DNA of 12,773 nt, taken from the UHGV virus genome UHGV-1672225, one strand, 5' to 3'. Positions 1-11,132 of the stretch are shown here, in pieces (position 1 is the first letter of the stretch; the number at the start of each line of letters is the position of its first letter). The notes below the pieces were generated by a model, which was not told the DNA's origin, searched no databases, and saw only the letters and a list, made by a program, of their open reading frames with translations. Both the position numbers and the translations under genes were made by a program. The stretch comes from a virus.

Positions 1-11
1 AGAAATATATA

Positions 12-221
12 TTACTTTGGACAGTTGATTTCCCATGCCATGTTATGAGCCAGAATATCTTTCTTTGTCTGGCGGTCCATAACATCGATGTCGTGATCAG
101 TCAGGTAGATGGGCTTTACCCAATCACAGGCGGTATCAACCACCACCGGGACGCTTCCACGACTCCCGCAGCTCGCGATCAACATCGTCATCAGCCATAT
201 GGTTAACACTCTGCTGTACAT
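12..221 (-). CDS. Rz1-like o-spanin lipoprotein (overlapping the Rz-like gene in another frame)
   Basis: 69-aa ORF with an N-terminal hydrophobic signal and lipobox-like LIASC; starts inside and extends past the 3' end of the Rz-like ORF at 136..414, as in spanin pairs at the end of lysis cassettes. Confidence 0.4.
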   Translation of the reverse strand: MYSRVLTIWLMTMLIASCGSRGSVPVVVDTACDWVKPIYLTDHDIDVMDRQTKKDILAHNMAWEINCPK

Positions 222-3663: not shown

Positions 3664-4025
3664 TTCAACTCCTCCCGACGACGTTCCTGAAGCTCTAGCA
3701 TTGCGGCTCGGAAATCCTGCCACCATTCCTCATCTGCAACGGGGGTGTTCCGCTCCAGCACCTTGTCCGCATCGGCGATCAGGTTTGCCAGAATCTTGTC
3801 TGAAATCTTCGTTACCGGAGTCGTTGGTTGCTCAACCTGCCCGATAGGTTTTATCGTGCTCAAAAGGAGGCGACGGCGGGAAAGTGGTGCCCCACAACGA
3901 CGGCCATCTTCCTTGCGATATGTTTCTTTCGGACCAACACACCAGGTTGTCGGCGTTTCGCGCAACTTCACTCTTTTCTCACCATCATTGGTAATGATTA
4001 TTCCGGTATGGGTTTTGATGCTCAT
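3660..4025 (-). CDS. Hypothetical protein (121 aa)
   Basis: ORF whose ATG overlaps the stop of the upstream wHTH gene (ATGA) and whose stop overlaps the ASCH gene start. Confidence 0.45.
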   Translation of the reverse strand: MSIKTHTGIIITNDGEKRVKLRETPTTWCVGPKETYRKEDGRRCGAPLSRRRLLLSTIKPIGQVEQPTTPVTKISDKILANLIADADKVLERNTPVADEEWWQDFRAAMLELQERRREELK

Positions 4026-4303
4026 GCCACAGCCCCTCTCAACGGCTTAACTTTGGCTAATAAGGTGTTAAACAACATGGAGTTAGGATTCATGCCAAAT
4101 GGCAATTCCGGTTTAGCGGAGTAGTACAGGCAACCATTTATTTTCCTAGTTGTTATCTGTCCTTCGGCAACCATGCTTCTCAGTCTGCAACGCATAGAGT
4201 TCTGCGACACACCAATGTGCTCCGCGATTACGTCCACTTTTGAACATGGGTGATCGGTCAGGAAATTAATCACATCTTGGGGGTTAATAATTTTGCGTTT
4301 CAT
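4022..4303 (-). CDS. Winged-helix DNA-binding protein, FaeA/PapI-like
   Basis: Start at ATG 4303 (AAGGA upstream) rather than 4324. The pattern INFLTDHP...VIAEHIGVSQNSMRCRLRSMVAEGQI resembles recalled PapI/FaeA-family regulators. Confidence 0.4.
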   Translation of the reverse strand: MKRKIINPQDVINFLTDHPCSKVDVIAEHIGVSQNSMRCRLRSMVAEGQITTRKINGCLYYSAKPELPFGMNPNSMLFNTLLAKVKPLRGAVA

Positions 4304-4348
4304 TGTCGAGGCGTCCTTATACATTTGTATAAATATATAATTCTATAT

Positions 4349-4380: not shown

Positions 4381-5448
4381 TCAGGCTTTCAATAGCGATT
4401 CTTTTAGATATCGGGCATCAGCCAGGGCGTTTGGAGTAATCTTGCGAACCCATGCATTACGGGTTGGACTCCACTTAAAGGCGCGTGATTTAAGCAGCGA
4501 ACGAATGTTTGCCTCTGGTTTGCCAGGGAAATAAAACAGGATGCGGTTATCCTCTGGATCTATCTCCATAGAAAAGCCGTCGTATTCTTCGCGCTGTGCT
4601 CCTGTTACAGACTTGACCGATTCAAGCTCCTTAATACGGCTCTGTAGTCGTTTGATTTCGGCGTTATTGTTGCTCAGTGCGTATGAAGGGAATCCGATGC
4701 GCCCACAGAAATCTCCGGCCAGTAACTCTTTGGCTTCGCTTTCTGTAAACCTGAGATCGATTAATGCAGAAAGCTGCTGTATTTGGTCTTTTTTGTATTT
4801 GCGAATGGCCTTATTTGCGGCCTTCATTTTGACGTGTGACTTCATGCAGCCTTGCAGCTTACGAAGCAACTTAAATAGCGCATCAGGATCATCAGACGAA
4901 ATTCCATTACGACCAACACCTGCGGCTTTGCTCTCGTAGTGTGATGCTTTACTTTCGCATTCAACAAACGCTTTTCTGAATAACGCATCAGCTTTAGACA
5001 AACGGCGGCGATGGCCTTTCGCGCTATAATGGTCAACTAAAATCGGCTGGCCTAACGGGATCACATCCAACAGGTCATGCGCTCGCTTATGCGCTACCGC
5101 ACCTTCTTTTCTGGCTTTTTCTGCACGAGCAATATATCGGGCAAGACGCGCGTTCTGGCGTTCCTGATAGGTGTTTACGTAATCATCTCCGCGCTGCTGC
5201 TGTTCAAGCCATGCTTTGCGCAGATCTTCTGTTACGTCCACCAGCTCCGCAGGGATACAACCAGTTTGGGCTTCATAAGAGTAACCATCCTCATAGATAC
5301 GCCCATCGTCTTCAACAAAGAAAAAGGTTTCGTGCTCATCGCTTTTGACCATACGACCATTAACATGGCGTAATAGGTAGCCAGTATCAGTGCTTAACAG
5401 GCTGTTAGGGTTGTTGATCCAGTCAGAAATAATTACTTGTTTATTCAT
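4381..5448 (-). CDS. DUF3560-like protein (355 aa), function unknown
   Basis: Start at ATG 5448 (GGAGA 7 nt upstream) rather than 5529. Central GQPILVDHYSAKGHRRRL resembles the recalled DUF3560 motif; long K/E-rich helical middle region. Confidence 0.45.
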   Translation of the reverse strand: MNKQVIISDWINNPNSLLSTDTGYLLRHVNGRMVKSDEHETFFFVEDDGRIYEDGYSYEAQTGCIPAELVDVTEDLRKAWLEQQQRGDDYVNTYQERQNARLARYIARAEKARKEGAVAHKRAHDLLDVIPLGQPILVDHYSAKGHRRRLSKADALFRKAFVECESKASHYESKAAGVGRNGISSDDPDALFKLLRKLQGCMKSHVKMKAANKAIRKYKKDQIQQLSALIDLRFTESEAKELLAGDFCGRIGFPSYALSNNNAEIKRLQSRIKELESVKSVTGAQREEYDGFSMEIDPEDNRILFYFPGKPEANIRSLLKSRAFKWSPTRNAWVRKITPNALADARYLKESLLKA

Positions 5449-5616
5449 CAGATTTCTCCGGTTTAACCAGGGCGGGTATCGCTCGGTTTCGGGTATAACA
5501 TAGGAAATTTTTTCCCACCTGTAAAGCACTTTTTATATAAATCTATAATTATATATTTATAGATTTTCGATGTTCCCGATGTCTACACACCATCAAAACA
5601 GCTCAAAATGACACTT

Positions 5617-5994
5617 TTACTCTCTTCGCTTTTTCAAATAGTCGACAACATACGCCCTGGCTTTTGCCAGCTTCCGGCGATACTGTCTGAGGCTAAGAGA
5701 AAGGGCGTGGGCTTTATCAATATGCGGTGCATTTATGTCGAGGCCCCGAATCTCCCACGCCCCGTATTCAATTCGGACAACCAGCGCCGCAGTCTCATCA
5801 ACTACCGTGAGGGCCGTCACCGCTCCCTCTATACTGGTTTCCAGTGAGTCATTTGGTGCGCCGCCCCCTCCGGTAAACTGGCAGCGCGTAACCATCATCA
5901 TTTCTAACATCGACGCGAAACCGCTACGGGCGTTGCAGCCATTGCGCACCCACAGCGCCCATAGCTCAAACAAGCTATCCAGATCGCGTCTCAC
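5617..5994 (-). CDS. Candidate Q-like antiterminator (Phage_antitermQ-type), GTG start
   Basis: 125 aa; N-terminal LFELWALW and C-terminal basic helix loosely resemble the small Q-like antiterminator family; sits at the end of the nin-like block. Weak call. Confidence 0.35.
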   Translation of the reverse strand: MRRDLDSLFELWALWVRNGCNARSGFASMLEMMMVTRCQFTGGGGAPNDSLETSIEGAVTALTVVDETAALVVRIEYGAWEIRGLDINAPHIDKAHALSLSLRQYRRKLAKARAYVVDYLKKRRE

Positions 5995-7967: not shown

Positions 7968-7986
7968 TTAACGAACTCCAGTTAAA

Positions 7987-8022
7987 ACCACGATACGTGG
8001 TATTAAAACCACATATCGTGAG
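7987..8022. promoter_or_regulatory. Two adjacent operator-like palindromes (ACCAC-N5-GTGGT type)
   Basis: ACCACGATACGTGGT at 7987-8001 is a perfect inverted repeat; ACCACATATCGTGAG at 8008-8022 is imperfect. Both are preceded by AAA. Confidence 0.55.
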
Positions 8023-8030
8023 TTTTTCAA
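8002..8030 (-). promoter_or_regulatory. pR-like sigma70 promoter for the leftward early operon
   Basis: On the minus strand TTGAAA (8030-8025), a 17-nt spacer, then TTTAAT (8007-8002); the spacer is operator B and the predicted start lies in operator A. Confidence 0.5.
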
Positions 8031-8089
8031 TGGGCGAAACAAAAAATAACCTTCTATTTGTGGTCCACCTCTCGTCTTACCATGTGAAA

Positions 8090-8104
8090 ACCACTAAATG
8101 TGGT
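8090..8104. promoter_or_regulatory. Operator-like palindrome on the repressor-proximal side
   Basis: ACCACTAAATGTGGT, a perfect 5-bp half-site inverted repeat about 40 bp upstream of the CI-like start. Confidence 0.5.
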
Positions 8105-8141
8105 AATGTATAAATAACCCACCATTCACGATTGATGAGAC

Positions 8142-8798
8142 ATGAAAAGCAACGACGAGAACATCAAGAAAGAAATAGGTCTGCGCATTCAGACTCTACG
8201 GAAACAATCCGGCATGACTGCCGGAGATCTCCAGCAAGTCACTGGAATAGGCTTAAGCACCTTGCAGAACTATGAGGCCGGATTAAGACAACCATCTATA
8301 CCTGCCATCAAGAAAATCGCGCACGCCCTGAAAGCATCAGCGCCTTATATCGCGTGCTTAACAGATAACCCGTTCCCACCCCAGAATACTAACGCTCCTG
8401 TTATTCCTGGGCTTGTAGCTATAAAAAATGACATAGCATCGCACGCCGGAGAAAAGCCAGTGCTGGCGATAGAACAGGAGATTCTACGAAGCAAGAACAT
8501 CAACCCATCGTCTCTGTCAGTTCTCCAGAGCAACGATGAGTTAATGTCACCAACAATATCCCCAGGCTCCCAAGTCCTGATTAATACAGACGATACAGAG
8601 ATTCATGAGGGGATCTATGCCCTTGAAGACAGAAATGGCCTGGTTGTTTTGAGGCACTGTAGAGTCATACCGGGTGACAATGCTGTTATGCTGTCAACCG
8701 AAAGGGATGCTGAAATGAACACTAAGCATCTGAATAACGAGGAATTTAAGCGTTATAAAGTTCTTGGCCGCGTAGTTAGTGTTGTCAACTGGTTATGA
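8142..8798 (+). CDS. CI-like phage repressor (XRE-type HTH plus S24 LexA-like peptidase domain)
   Basis: N-terminal LRIQTLRKQSGMTAGDLQQVTGIGLSTLQNYEAG is HTH-like; the C-terminal 100 aa has an S24-like fold pattern; divergent from the Cro-like gene. Confidence 0.7.
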   Translation: MKSNDENIKKEIGLRIQTLRKQSGMTAGDLQQVTGIGLSTLQNYEAGLRQPSIPAIKKIAHALKASAPYIACLTDNPFPPQNTNAPVIPGLVAIKNDIASHAGEKPVLAIEQEILRSKNINPSSLSVLQSNDELMSPTISPGSQVLINTDDTEIHEGIYALEDRNGLVVLRHCRVIPGDNAVMLSTERDAEMNTKHLNNEEFKRYKVLGRVVSVVNWL

Positions 8799-9269: not shown

Positions 9270-9289
9270 AAGCGGGCTAACGCCCGCTT
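9270..9289 (+). terminator. Intrinsic terminator-like hairpin after the 124-aa gene
   Basis: AAGCGGGC-taac-GCCCGCTT, 8-bp stem, followed by AT-rich sequence. Confidence 0.45.
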
Positions 9290-9290
9290 A

Positions 9291-9392
9291 TATGATTATA
9301 GATTTATATAATTATATAAAACGCTTTTCATCAGCCAAAAAGTTGGTTATGCTTACCTCGTTCTATAAATATAGATTTATAGAATTATATAA
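9291..9392. promoter_or_regulatory. AT-rich arrays with TATA boxes at 8-bp phase upstream of parA (candidate operator or centromere-like site)
   Basis: 9296-9321 TTATAGATTTATATAATTATATAAAA and 9361-9392 TTCTATAAATATAGATTTATAGAATTATATAA; the second also contains the palindrome TCTATA-AA-TATAGA. Confidence 0.4.
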
Positions 9393-9415
9393 CCAAACAC
9401 ATGGAGTCTCGACAA

Positions 9416-10069
9416 ATGACTATCTCTGTAGGTATTTTCAACGGAAAAGGCGGCGTAACAAAATCAACAATTGCCCGTGCTTTAGCAGTTGCTTATGCAA
9501 AGGCTGGCTGGAATGTATGCCTGATCGATATGGATGTGCTTAACGGAACGGTAACGCGTTGGGTACAACGCAGAATGGCCAACAATATCGAACCAGCAAT
9601 CGCGGCGCAGCCGTGCGGCACACCATCACAAGTCCAGAAAATCATCGAATCAGAAGTATACGACCTGGTTATCGTCGATGGCGGTGCCTACGCATCTGAA
9701 TCAGTACCGAAGCTATCTGAATTTCTGGATATGGTTATTTTGCCAACCCGATTCTCTACCGATGACCTGGAAACCACCGTTAACACTGCTCACGGCATCG
9801 TTAAAAAGGGTGTACCAATCAAGAAAATTTGCATGGTGTTTTCCGGCGCGGCTGAAAACGAAGCTGACTATATTGAAGCCCAAGAGTACCTGGCTAATAC
9901 GCCATACTTTGTTGTCGATAAGTACATTCCCCACAAGCCAGCTCTGAGCAAAGCTCAGGATAAGGGCTTAAGCCTCATTGAGTGCTCATACGTTGCGCCA
10001 CGCAAAAAGGCAGACGACGTTATTCAGGGGATTATCAACCAGCTTGAGGCTCTGACTACTGCCGCATAA
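9416..10069 (+). CDS. parA: Small ParA-family (deviant Walker A) ATPase, type Ib partition-like
   Basis: Start at ATG 9416 (GGAG 10 nt upstream) rather than 9401. Deviant Walker A GKGGVTKST, Walker B-like DLVIVDG, about 217 aa. Confidence 0.65.
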   Translation: MTISVGIFNGKGGVTKSTIARALAVAYAKAGWNVCLIDMDVLNGTVTRWVQRRMANNIEPAIAAQPCGTPSQVQKIIESEVYDLVIVDGGAYASESVPKLSEFLDMVILPTRFSTDDLETTVNTAHGIVKKGVPIKKICMVFSGAAENEADYIEAQEYLANTPYFVVDKYIPHKPALSKAQDKGLSLIECSYVAPRKKADDVIQGIINQLEALTTAA

Positions 10070-10100
10070 TATATAATTATAGTTTTATAGATTTATATAA
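10066..10100. promoter_or_regulatory. Third TATA-phased AT-rich array between parA and the RHH gene
   Basis: TATAtaatTATAgtttTATAgattTATAtaag: four TATA boxes at exact 8-bp spacing, overlapping the parA stop. Confidence 0.4.
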
Positions 10101-10112
10101 GAGGGGATACAC

Positions 10113-10361
10113 ATGGCCGCACCATCAAAACCACCAAAGAAGAACAGCAAAGGCGTACCGCCATCGATCGAACAACCGCAGGTTTTCGACCCGACTGAAA
10201 CGCCAACCAGAACCAAATCAGGTGGGGCACAAATGGCGTTTAACGTCGACCCTGAATTTAAACGCGAGTACAAAACGTTCGCCAGCTCAATGGATATGTC
10301 ATTGAAAGAAGTGCTGACAAAGTCTTTTGAGTTACTCAAGGCTCAATACAACCAGAAGTAA
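10113..10361 (+). CDS. Ribbon-helix-helix DNA-binding protein, ParG-like partner of ParA
   Basis: 82 aa; flexible basic N-terminal tail, then MAFNVDPEFKREYKTFASSMDMSLKEVLTKSFELLKAQ with a beta-strand/helix/helix pattern; AAGAGGGGA RBS. Confidence 0.5.
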   Translation: MAAPSKPPKKNSKGVPPSIEQPQVFDPTETPTRTKSGGAQMAFNVDPEFKREYKTFASSMDMSLKEVLTKSFELLKAQYNQK

Positions 10362-10423: not shown

Positions 10424-10573
10424 ATGTCCGAGCAACAATATACACGGTTACTGAAAACTCGTCTAACCGACCTCAAACGGCTGCAAGCTGGCTGCTTATT
10501 TGCCCTGCTATCCACCAGGCCAGAATGGGTACGTGAAGCAGTTCTGAAAGGCTTAATGCGCTCCAGCGTTTAA
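10424..10573 (+). CDS. Small hypothetical protein (49 aa)
   Basis: ATG at 10424 with AAGGGGAA RBS; last ORF before the terminator at about 10590. Confidence 0.3.
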   Translation: MSEQQYTRLLKTRLTDLKRLQAGCLFALLSTRPEWVREAVLKGLMRSSV

Positions 10574-10590
10574 ATTCAGCCATAAAAAAA

Positions 10591-10606
10591 GGCCCCCGAA
10601 GGGGCC
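10591..10606 (-). terminator. Intrinsic terminator hairpin (minus-strand orientation, possibly bidirectional)
   Basis: GGCCCC-cgaa-GGGGCC preceded on the plus strand by 7 A (a U-run on the minus transcript); no T-run on the plus side. Confidence 0.45.
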
Positions 10607-11132
10607 TAATCGCTACTTGCTGCTAATGTTTATCGTCACATTCAGAGCGTTATCAGTAATCTTCCAACCCTCCCCATGTGGCGTAAACAAAGCCCCAGTA
10701 ACAACGATAAAAATACACATACAGTATTTTTTCATTGTATGGCCCTTACAGGCCGTTTCACGGCATCCCCACCGACGAAAACAACGCGAGAGCAAGCACG
10801 GCTGCTTGTGCTTGCATGTACGGCAACGGAGAATCCTCCCCTAAAGTCGGTGCCCGGGTGCGAATCGGCGGGAAGGTCCACAGGTATTTTACGATTATTT
10901 TAAGATTAGTAATAGGAAAGAAATTAAACGAAAAAACTCGTTTATTTTCACAAAATCAGTAACCTACCCACAATCTGTGAGTTTGCAGGCACAACAAGAA
11001 CCACAATTTTTTGAAGCATAATAGTGGACTATTATTACCTTTTGGGTAAAATTAACTTGCTGCTTGTGCTTGCGTGGTTGTTTATACAACAACGTAATGC
11101 TGAAAGGACCGCGAATCCGATCAGCACGAAAG

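Follow-up and report, generated by a model that had tools for sequence, protein, structure and literature searches.

A Probable Partition Gene Pair of a Phage-Plasmid with Scattered Putative Binding Arrays in an Escherichia coli Virus

Genes and Repeat Arrays at the Locus

The locus is comprised of a parA gene, a gene for an 82-aa protein directly downstream of it, and three 32-bp arrays, each made of four 8-bp units (TTATAKAW), which lie upstream of parA and between the two genes. It was found in a window of 12,773 nucleotides (the whole stretch of DNA analyzed) from the virus genome UHGV-1672225. The positions of these and of the surrounding features are shown in Table 1.

Table 1. Features of the window around the partition gene pair and the arrays. 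L001 is the whole record of the element and L003 is the Salmonella relative.
Position	Strand	Feature	Details
1..12	-	Array #2, cut end	The window starts inside it; directly after the stop codon of the last lysis gene (the 12-221 ORF); full array at L001 28796-28827
12-1666		Lysis genes	About 7.5 kb from the gene pair
4317..4348	-	Array #3, four 8-bp units	Follows a GC-rich hairpin after the DUF3560 gene; ends 13 nt before the start codon of the 93-aa winged-helix-like gene (4022-4303, minus strand); position conserved in Salmonella (L003 39389-39420)
5447..5532	-	Promoter-leader-RBS cassette	-35 TTTACA at 5525-5520, 17-nt spacer, -10 TATGTT at 5502-5497, then a leader and GGAG before the DUF3560 start at 5446; one of three near-identical copies in the element
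5533..5564	-	Array #4, four 8-bp units	7 nt upstream of a predicted -35 box; position conserved in Salmonella (L003 38169-38200)
7968-8141		Gap with operators	ACCAC-N5-GTGGT operators of the CI-like repressor
8142-8798		CI-like HTH/S24 repressor	
9271..9288	+	GC-rich hairpin	AGCGGGC-TAAC-GCCCGCT, after the 124-aa gene; may be a weak terminator, since it has no proper T run; not called by the terminator scan
9288..9319	+	Array #5, distal to parA	TTATATGA TTATAGAT TTATATAA TTATATAA; ends 5 nt before the predicted -35 box
9325..9353	+	Weak predicted parA promoter	TTTTCA-17-TATGCT, 8 of 12 matches; lies between the two arrays; same layout of array, -35, -10, array seen by eye in Salmonella and Serratia
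9361..9392	+	Array #6, proximal to parA	TTCTATAA ATATAGAT TTATAGAA TTATATAA; starts at about the predicted +1 and ends 23 nt before the parA ATG
9416..10069	+	parA	217-aa small Walker-type (deviant Walker A) partition ATPase, no N-terminal HTH domain
10069..10100	+	Array #7	ATATATAA TTATAGTT TTATAGAT TTATATAA; starts at the last base of the parA stop codon and ends 12 nt before the ATG of the 82-aa gene, running straight into its Shine-Dalgarno sequence (GAGGGG, 10101-10106)
10113..10361	+	Gene for the 82-aa putative centromere-binding protein	Disordered basic N-terminal tail with the conserved motif KPPKK..KG.PP; residues about 41-80 form a predicted strand-helix-helix (RHH) domain
10424..10573	+	Unannotated 49-aa gene	Directly after the 82-aa gene; homologues in the same position in Salmonella, Serratia, and Vibrio; possible third gene of the operon
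10590..10607		GC-rich hairpin	AGGCCCC-TTCG-GGGGCCT, with A/T runs on both sides; likely end of the par operon; called on the minus strand by the terminator scan

The first-pass annotation described a deviant Walker A ATPase followed by a ribbon-helix-helix (RHH) protein with a basic N-terminal tail, next to a CI/Cro switch and a lysis cassette and with no lambda O/P-type replication genes in the early operon, and this observation was confirmed, with the RHH fold as a prediction. No lambda O/P homologue was found among the 15 window ORFs scanned, which include most but not all genes of the leftward operon and several of which have no family match at all. A perfect 14-nt inverted repeat (10252-10265 with 10566-10579) was also detected, but it is not conserved in Salmonella or in the Yersinia phage and is considered to be a chance occurrence.

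The ParA ATPase

The parA ORF has two possible ATG codons, at 9401 and 9416. The latter is the RefSeq start and follows a GGAG that is conserved in Salmonella and Serratia, whereas the former has no such site. The Walker A motif (FNGKGGVTKST, with KGGVTKS at residues 11-17) occupies residues 8-18, which leaves no room for an N-terminal DNA-binding extension, and Walker A' (CLIDMD) and Walker B (DLVIVDGG) motifs are also present. The protein thereby agrees with the size of about 200-230 aa and the deviant Walker A motif KGGxxK[ST] that characterize the ParA of type Ib partition systems. The protein matched the Pfam CbiA/ParA-type family (1.7e-12), PHROG 164 'ParA-like partition protein' (2e-39), and the NCBIfam ParA_partition model, which was aligned over its full length at 4e-22, although below the curated cutoff. 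In contrast, MinD models matched only the P-loop. ParF/TP228 ParA structures were also aligned, although the similarity to ParF itself is marginal (E=3e-4 over half the protein).

The Small Protein and Its Predicted RHH Domain

With regard to the 82-aa protein, its N-terminal 40 residues carry 6 K/R against 3 D/E, and profile searches place its C-terminal half among RHH proteins. The protein itself has no Pfam hit, phmmer against PDB sequences found nothing, and structure searches returned no match, so the predicted fold rests on the family and on a model. In a family of about 50 small homologues, 19 of 54 members hit Pfam RHH_10 and others hit Antitox_RHH, 56B_RHH, and ParG. The family profile was aligned by hhalign in register over the whole domain with ParG (P=1.5e-4), omega (2.5e-3), and Arc (4.4e-3), while the lambda Cro control gave 0.32. 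Against PDB sequences, on the other hand, the family profile found a CopG-family RHH protein and ParG only at E=0.5-0.8. In the AlphaFold monomer model, residues 41-80 have pLDDT above 90, with an extended segment followed by two helices, and the low-confidence tail was modelled without secondary structure. The N-terminal motif MA..KPPKK..KG.PP is conserved across 54 homologues.

The first-pass annotation compared the pair with ParF/ParG-type cassettes, and one correction is needed here. Only the architecture is ParF/ParG-like, and the small protein is not a member of the ParG Pfam family (PF09274). It has no hit to this profile at E<=0.01, only 1 of 54 family members hits it (E=0.018), and the PDB ParG chain scores E=0.83 against the family profile. 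It belongs to a distinct family with RHH hits among its members (PHROG 6024, function unknown).

Extrachromosomal State of the Element

The locus was detected in 61 PLSDB plasmid records, which match at 80-99.9% identity, are roughly 46-52 kb in length apart from one 94-kb record, and carry it together with repA. The whole record L001 contains a complete tail, head, and lysis gene set, with terminase, portal, capsid, sheath/tube, baseplate, tail fibre, and lysis genes, as well as repA, parA, and a RelE/ParE-type toxin-antitoxin pair. In complete E. coli genomes, 71 of 72 copies are on plasmids and 1 is on a chromosome. The element is present in about 1.3% of complete E. coli genomes, including the quality-control strain ATCC 25922. 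Three isolated phages, Yersinia phage vB_YpM_39, 41, and 44 (host Y. pestis EV76-CN), also carry the locus and are 98.9-99.3% identical over the region; that the element forms infectious particles rests on these records as deposited, for which no describing paper was found. Literature searches by phage name, accession number, and keyword likewise found no paper describing this element or its par system.

The phage-plasmid reading proposed in the first-pass annotation is thus supported. The conditions it had set out as contrary evidence, namely a MinD-like ATPase, a small protein lacking an RHH fold, and a location in an ordinary integrated prophage, were each examined and were not borne out. 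Its second suggestion, that a partition-like module has been co-opted for phage regulation, gains support from the distribution of the arrays described below.

Distribution of the Arrays

The same arrays occur at eight gene boundaries across the element, five of them outside the par locus. A two-unit pattern gave 24 matches in the window against 0.10 expected from shuffles, and 43 against 0.5 in the whole element, and the true unit beats every permuted unit tested. All eight positions are conserved in a Salmonella relative at 80% identity, while the spacer between the two parA arrays is unalignable. The 16-mer TTATAGATTTATATAA always points toward the downstream gene. Four arrays sit 5-7 nt upstream of a predicted -35 box, whereas arrays #3 and #7 have no predicted promoter of their own. 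It should be mentioned that three of the eight arrays belong to a triplicated cassette of about 110 bp and are not independent occurrences. The leader of this cassette folds no better than shuffled sequence (z = -1.7). It was suspected that the 125-aa protein at 5617-5994, just upstream of the cassette, is a Q-type antiterminator and that the cassette is a Q-dependent late promoter, but Pfam gave no support even at E<=10 and this remains only an idea.

Relatives in Serratia, Vibrio, and GC-rich viral contigs have the same ParA-RHH pair with different 8-bp units, which are again scattered. Serratia uses TTAAAKAW (21 matches against 0.23 expected), Vibrio uses TTTCGTGC (17 against 0.6), and the IMG/VR loci use GATTTMGC or GAATTMGC (24, 18, and 12 matches against about 1). 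In all 5 IMG/VR loci, a ParA gene directly precedes the RHH homologue, and a four-unit array abuts the parA start in the IMG/VR loci. ParA and the RHH protein were the only proteins found by tblastn to be shared by all of these lineages. However, pTP33 of Y. pestis has the gene pair but showed no scattered repeat in a crude 14-mer test. No stretch of the protein alignments was conserved enough to serve for a search of related loci, and a viral scan with the query P0021 found no relative.

Interpretation

The window comes from a 47-49 kb myovirus-type phage-plasmid of Escherichia and its relatives, which replicates with a RepA initiator encoded outside the window, and the genes at 9416-10361 appear to form its type Ib-like partition cassette. 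With moderate confidence, we favor a reading in which the putative centromere-binding protein also acts genome-wide, as omega of pSM19035 or KorB of RK2 do. In this view, ParA-ATP dimers would bind the nucleoid, and dimers of the 82-aa protein would coat the arrays, one dimer per 8-bp unit and four contiguous units per array. The basic N-terminal tail would stimulate the ParA ATPase, which would move plasmid copies apart. Since two arrays flank the predicted parA promoter and a third abuts the ribosome-binding site of the small gene, the same binding would autoregulate the operon. Of the five further arrays, which stand in the phage and plasmid backbone, three lie just upstream of the -35 box of the triplicated cassette; the RHH protein would therefore most likely double as a genome-wide regulator or silencer, and/or these sites would serve as dispersed centromeres, which would tie expression of phage and maintenance genes to the level of the partition protein. 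The computation establishes the genes, the arrays with their positions and conservation, and the extrachromosomal state of the element, whereas binding of the RHH protein to the arrays (to which neither an experiment nor a binding prediction links it), ATPase stimulation, partition activity, stabilization of the replicon, and any regulatory effect and its direction are inferred.

Some observations do not fit easily with this model. The strand residues (LNFKV) are the same in the Vibrio and GC-rich lineages although their units differ, and specificity is therefore not explained by the strand alone. The predicted parA promoter is weak, and the par genes could instead be read from the cI promoter through the weak hairpin at 9271-9288. 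In addition, the arrays are almost pure A+T and contain TATAAT-like hexamers, and they could act as promoter or UP elements regardless of any bound protein.

Several alternatives were considered. It is possible, although unlikely, that this is an ordinary partition cassette and that the scattered arrays bound by the RHH protein are only extra centromere sites without effect on transcription, like the four IR sites of prophage-plasmid N15 (IR1-4; PMC7205306), which are reportedly separate and scattered (Ravin and Lane 1999). Arrays #3 and #7, and the Vibrio arrays that fill short gaps between structural genes where no promoter is expected, would agree with such a role. However, four arrays sit at a fixed 5-7 nt upstream of a -35 box and one starts at the predicted +1 of parA, the arrays are oriented with respect to the downstream gene, which a pure centromere would not need, and bound RHH arrays at promoters repress in both well-studied cases, ParG at its OF operator and omega (PMC3130281, PMC5016525). 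Less likely still, the arrays may not be sites for the RHH protein but A+T-rich promoter or UP elements, or sites for a host nucleoid protein or another phage protein, the true centromere lying elsewhere or consisting only of the arrays next to parA. The arrays lie where UP elements lie, the promoter scan found antisense consensus promoters inside them, a 125-aa protein and a DUF1064 protein are also shared with the Serratia and Vibrio elements, and ParB/Srx-domain proteins are shared with the GC-rich loci. Nevertheless, none of these other proteins is shared by all lineages with scattered arrays, the GATTTMGC units of the GC-rich lineages are not A+T-rich promoter-like sequence yet are scattered in the same way, and the arrays always cluster at the par operon.

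Two other candidate binders are also improbable. The CI repressor is unlikely to bind the arrays because its own operators are different, and the three ParB/Srx-domain proteins near the terminase genes are unlikely to be the centromere binders, since they lie 13-17 kb from parA and are absent from the Serratia and Vibrio elements, which still have scattered arrays. Finally, it is very unlikely that the pair has lost its partition function and acts only as a regulatory or exclusion module, for example in silencing or incompatibility, with inheritance relying on copy number and the toxin-antitoxin pair that the element carries; although no stability data exist, the ATPase motifs are intact, the gene is conserved at 30-55% identity across very distant phage-plasmids and is always paired with the RHH gene, and the N-terminal motif, the part that activates the ATPase in ParG (PMC3130281), is conserved across the family. 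The corresponding part also activates the ATPase in omega.

Phage-plasmids are common carriers of genes between bacteria, and how a plasmid prophage coordinates stable inheritance with silencing of its lytic genes has been worked out only for a few models (P1 and N15). Here, a minimal two-gene partition module appears to be wired into the whole genome through short, easily mutated arrays. If the RHH protein does bind these sites, the system would be a compact natural example of a partition protein acting as a global regulator in a virus, and the lineage-specific units would form a ready-made set of orthogonal protein-DNA pairs. A broader and more tentative possibility is that a widespread, undescribed family of ParA-RHH modules in phage-plasmids uses the centromere-binding protein as a genome-wide gatekeeper, with arrays of four 8-bp units of lineage-specific sequence at promoters and gene boundaries throughout the phage genome. 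Loading of the partition protein would then both segregate the plasmid prophage and hold lytic and establishment genes in check, which would couple plasmid copy number to the lysis-lysogeny state.

Comparison with Known Partition Systems

One of the closest known systems is ParF/ParG-parH of plasmid TP228 (type Ib partition), in which a small Walker-type ATPase with no HTH domain is followed by a small RHH protein with a flexible basic N-terminal tail. ParG binds tetramer boxes spaced 4 bp apart, which gives an 8-bp period, with one dimer per box, at both its centromere and its operator upstream of the operon (PMC3130281). In addition to the marginal sequence similarity, the present element differs in its unit sequence (TTATAKAW rather than ACTC boxes), in having eight short arrays of four units spread over 47 kb rather than one 20-box block, in having one array between the two genes, and in that the host replicon is a phage.

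In delta/omega of pSM19035 (inc18 plasmids), an RHH centromere-binding protein is also a global repressor, with three separate parS sites at promoters (PMC5016525), and at least four contiguous repeats are needed to activate its ParA (PMC9499535). However, omega uses 7-bp heptads in arrays of 7-10, and its regulon is copy control, partition, and a toxin-antitoxin system on a Firmicute plasmid, whereas the units here are 8 bp, each array has four units, and the putative sites extend into a phage lytic transcription unit. There is no detectable close sequence relationship between the two.

In SopAB of N15, which is also a phage-plasmid, and KorB/IncC of RK2, the binding sites of the partition protein are scattered over the replicon rather than forming one centromere (PMC7205306, PMC5016525). 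The KorB sites act in global transcription control. Those are type Ia systems with large HTH ParB proteins and palindromic sites, while the present element has a small, predicted RHH protein and directly repeated 8-bp units.

Properties of the ParA ATPase

The first open reading frame (ORF) of the gene pair can start at either of two ATG codons, of which the one giving a 217-aa product is used in RefSeq and follows a GGAG that is conserved in the Salmonella and Serratia versions, whereas the upstream ATG has no ribosome-binding site. The protein has a deviant Walker A motif (FNGKGGVTKST, residues 8-18) at its very N-terminus, so that there is no DNA-binding extension. It matches CbiA/ParA-type domains in Pfam (1.7e-12) and PHROG 164, 'ParA-like partition protein' (2e-39). 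It is also aligned end to end with the 203-position NCBIfam model ParA_partition at 4e-22, although below the curated cutoff of that model, while MinD models match only over the P-loop. Among solved structures, ParF and the TP228 ParA were matched over residues 6-118 (E=3e-4). It is therefore concluded that the protein is a small partition-type ParA and not a MinD. The coordinates of all features discussed here are listed in the table below.

Positions of the par locus and associated features (window coordinates unless a record is named)
Position	Strand	Feature	Remarks
1-12		Array #2, partial	The window starts inside it
4301-4324	-	Start region of the winged-helix-like gene	Longest ORF starts at an ATG (4324) inside array #3; RefSeq uses the ATG at 4303, which has an AAGGA ribosome-binding site
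4317-4348		Array #3	Outside the par locus
5447-5564	-	Cassette of about 110 bp	Present three times in the element
5533-5564		Array #4	Outside the par locus
7968-8141		Gap between the CI-like repressor gene and the divergent 164-aa gene	Presumed CI operators
9271-9288		Weak hairpin
9288-9319		Array #5	One of two arrays flanking the predicted parA promoter
9325-9353		Weak predicted parA promoter	TTTTCA-17-TATGCT
9361-9392		Array #6	One of two arrays flanking the predicted parA promoter
9401 or 9416-10069	+	parA	217 aa from the ATG at 9416
10069-10100		Array #7	Begins at the last base of the parA stop codon and ends 12 nt before the ATG of the small gene
10113-10361	+	Gene for the predicted RHH protein	82 aa
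10362-10423	+	Spacer	62 nt
10424-10573	+	Unannotated ORF	49 aa
10585-10881	-	ryfA	Rfam, 141.8 bits
11253-11326	+	isrK	Rfam, 70.2 bits
11351-11438	+	C4 antisense RNA	Rfam, 84.3 bits
11492-11683		ORF	63 aa
from about 11680		ORF6N-domain gene	RefSeq annotation
L001 21821-25700		Three ParB/Srx N-terminal-domain genes	Outside the window, next to the terminase genes
L001 27575-27692, 34452-34568, 43151-43268		Cassette copies
L005 8524-9371		ParA-RHH pair of Y. pestis pTP33	Overlapping genes

The small protein and its predicted ribbon-helix-helix fold

The 82-aa protein has no Pfam, NCBIfam, or PDB sequence match of its own and belongs to PHROG 6024, a family of unknown function. A search of 1.84 billion representative proteins revealed about 50 small homologues of 74-90 aa at 33-48% identity, and their alignment is comprised of a conserved N-terminal motif (MA..KPPKK..KG.PP), a variable linker, and a C-terminal block (LNFKV..EF.REFK.FA..HD.SM.ELL..SFELYK). 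Of the 54 members, 19 hit Pfam RHH_10 (best 8.8e-6), 12 hit Antitox_RHH, 5 hit 56B_RHH, and single members hit ParG, FitA-like RHH, ParD, and NikA. The family profile could be aligned in register over the whole ribbon-helix-helix (RHH) domain with ParG (P=1.5e-4), omega (2.5e-3), and Arc (4.4e-3), whereas the helix-turn-helix (HTH) protein lambda Cro, used as a control, gave P=0.32 over 10 columns; since these four reference sequences were not retrieved from a database, the comparisons should be considered as leads only. In addition, an AlphaFold model built with the family alignment has residues 41-80 at pLDDT above 90, with an extended segment followed by helices at 47-59 and 64-80 and a low-confidence tail (residues 1-40) without modelled secondary structure. 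Structure searches with the models returned nothing, which is expected for a 40-residue domain that forms its sheet only as a dimer. The RHH fold is thus regarded as well supported but not proven.

Directly after this gene lies an unannotated 49-aa ORF (MSEQQYTRLLKTRLTDLKRLQ...), whose homologues occupy the same place in Salmonella, Serratia (48 aa), and Vibrio. It has no family match apart from a weak PHROG hit (phrog_22022, unknown function, E=0.0013) and is a possible third gene of the par operon. The 62-nt spacer between the two is almost identical in E. coli and Salmonella (2 differences), although the flanking coding DNA is only about 80-90% identical, and contains a 7-bp stem, GACGGCC...GGCCGTC.

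Repeat arrays and immunity-type elements near the par operon

The repeats noted in the first-pass annotation are three 32-bp arrays (#5-#7), each made of four 8-bp units with the consensus TTATAKAW. The observation of a gene pair of this type accompanied by repeats was confirmed. By eye, the same layout at parA (array, 5-8 nt, -35, 17 nt, -10, about 8 nt, array) is present in Salmonella and Serratia, even though the promoter and spacer sequences have diverged beyond alignment.

With regard to the other elements nearby, the gap upstream of the CI-like repressor gene holds two ACCAC-N5-GTGGT palindromes (ACCACGATACGTGGT, ACCACTAAATGTGGT) and one half-matching copy (ACCACATATCGTGAG), which are presumably the CI operators and are unrelated to the octamer arrays. 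Just downstream of the par operon, three Rfam matches above gathering score were detected (ryfA, isrK, and C4 antisense RNA), and isrK and C4 are followed by the 63-aa ORF and the ORF6N-domain gene. This arrangement looks like a P1/P7-type immI antirepressor control region sitting beside a CI-type repressor.

Occurrence of the locus in phage-plasmids

The region matches 61 PLSDB plasmid records, all typed non-mobilizable and roughly 46-52 kb in size apart from one 94-kb ATCC 25922 record. Most are at 95-99.9% identity, and they come from E. coli, E. albertii, E. fergusonii, Klebsiella aerogenes, and Salmonella. One whole record (NZ_LR130559.1, hereafter L001) carries a complete myovirus-type gene set, a lysis cassette, the CI-like repressor, parA, a RelE/ParE toxin-antitoxin pair, and repA; the latter lies outside the window, about 6.5 kb beyond the par genes. 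Of 5,426 complete E. coli genomes, 71 contain the locus, with 71 places on plasmids and 1 on a chromosome, and E. coli ATCC 25922 is a carrier. Three isolated phages (Yersinia phage vB_YpM_39, 41, and 44) are 99% identical. The main interpretation offered in the first-pass annotation, namely that the element is maintained as a phage-plasmid, is therefore supported.

Three ParB/Srx N-terminal-domain genes are also found in L001, and in the Salmonella record the homologue of one of them is annotated as a methyltransferase-domain protein. Homologues of the two shorter ones also lie 4-5 kb from parA in the GC-rich IMG/VR loci described below, but are absent from the Serratia and Vibrio elements.

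Scattered arrays across the element

The two-unit pattern gives 24 matches in the window against 0.10 expected, some of which lie outside the par locus. In the whole element there are eight arrays, giving 43 matches against 0.5 expected, and the true unit outscores all 80 permuted units tested. All eight arrays are located at gene boundaries. Array #1 starts inside the stop codon of the MT-A70 methylase gene, #2 starts at the stop codon of the last lysis gene, #3 follows the hairpin after the DUF3560 gene and ends 13 nt before the next start codon, and #4 precedes the DUF3560 gene. Arrays #5 and #6 flank the predicted parA promoter, #7 precedes the RHH gene, and #8 precedes a two-gene unit between the antirepressor gene and the toxin-antitoxin genes. 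The 16-mer TTATAGATTTATATAA occurs five times exactly and always points toward the downstream gene. At array #3, the translation start region of the winged-helix-like gene (...CTCGACAATG) is shared with parA (...TCTCGACAAATG).

Arrays #1, #4, and #8 are each followed by a near-identical stretch of about 85 nt, which contains a -35 box (TTTACA), a -10 box (TATGGT or TATGTT), a leader, and a ribosome-binding site running up to the ATG. The array ends 7 nt before the -35 box, compared with a gap of 5 nt at the predicted parA promoter. Together with the last three array units, this stretch forms a cassette of about 110 bp that is present three times in front of unrelated genes. The three copies are near-identical within E. 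coli and within Salmonella, and the differences between the two species are the same in all three copies, which points to concerted evolution or co-evolution with a trans-acting factor. The leader does not fold significantly better than shuffled sequence.

Conservation and co-variation across lineages

A Salmonella Weltevreden plasmid, about 80% identical in the par region, has arrays at all eight homologous positions. More distant phage-plasmids carry the same gene pair with a different unit. In Serratia marcescens p2, whose small protein is about 45-50% identical, the unit is TTAAAKAW, and arrays flank parA, precede the RHH gene, and occur at about six other places (21 matches against 0.23 expected). 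In a Vibrio cyclitrophicus phage with a RepA gene (36-43% identical), the unit TTTCGTGC is found upstream of parA and at six gene junctions, most of them within the late gene cluster (17 matches against 0.6 expected). In five IMG/VR viral contigs, a ParA gene directly precedes the RHH homologue in all five. In four of them an array with an 8-bp period and about four units abuts the parA start (GATTTMGC in three, GAATTMGC in one), whereas none was evident in the fifth (L007). The unit recurs every 1-2 kb in the 20 kb available, with 24, 18, and 12 matches against about 1 expected. The same ParA-RHH pair, here with overlapping genes, is carried by the 34-kb phage-like plasmid pTP33 of Y. pestis (L005), which otherwise shares only tail-fibre segments with the E. 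coli element, so the par module appears to move between unrelated phage-plasmids.

By tblastn, ParA and the RHH protein are the only proteins shared by the E. coli element with all of the more distant lineages that have a different unit (Serratia, Vibrio, and IMG/VR), although in two of the GC-rich loci the RHH link rests on a match to a family member rather than on the tblastn comparison. This intersection, together with the clustering of arrays at the par operon in every lineage, is the main argument that the RHH protein is the putative array binder. One suggestive detail is that lineages whose strand residues read F-N-V have A+T-only units, while those with F-K-V have units containing a GC step. 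However, identical strands go with different GC-containing units, and hence the strand alone does not explain specificity.

Proposed mechanism

The anatomy of the locus fits established knowledge of RHH partition proteins. ParG binds boxes spaced 8 bp apart, one dimer per box, at both the parH centromere and the OF operator, and its flexible tail activates ParF (PMC3130281). The omega protein of pSM19035 binds three separate heptad arrays at promoters that double as parS sites (PMC5016525), and at least four contiguous repeats are needed to activate its ParA (PMC9499535). Here, every array has four contiguous units. It is therefore proposed that RHH dimers coat each array, that the arrays at the par operon form the partition complex and autoregulate the operon, and that the conserved basic N-terminal motif activates ParA. 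While the genes, the arrays with their positions and conservation, and the extrachromosomal state of the element come directly from the sequence analysis, every step of this scheme, including array binding, ATPase activation, partition, and regulation, is inferred.

The arrays outside the par operon may either repress, or block read-through into, the adjacent phage and maintenance genes, or serve as additional centromeres as in N15. Because the arrays lie where UP elements and class I activators act, activation is not excluded. The par genes might also be read from the cI promoter through the weak hairpin that precedes array #5.

Comparison with known partition systems

The cassette itself is ordinary and already annotated as 'ParA family protein', whereas the genome-wide array network and its recurrence across lineages are what is new here; no paper on this element or on RHH-type partition in phage-plasmids was found in the library searched. 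In architecture it is a type Ib-like partition cassette, but it is not a member of the ParG Pfam family. Scattered partition sites in a phage-plasmid have a precedent in N15, which uses a type Ia system with an HTH ParB. In its proposed mode of action, the present system is most like delta/omega, from which it differs in unit length, in array size and number, in being carried by a phage, and in reaching into the lytic transcription unit.
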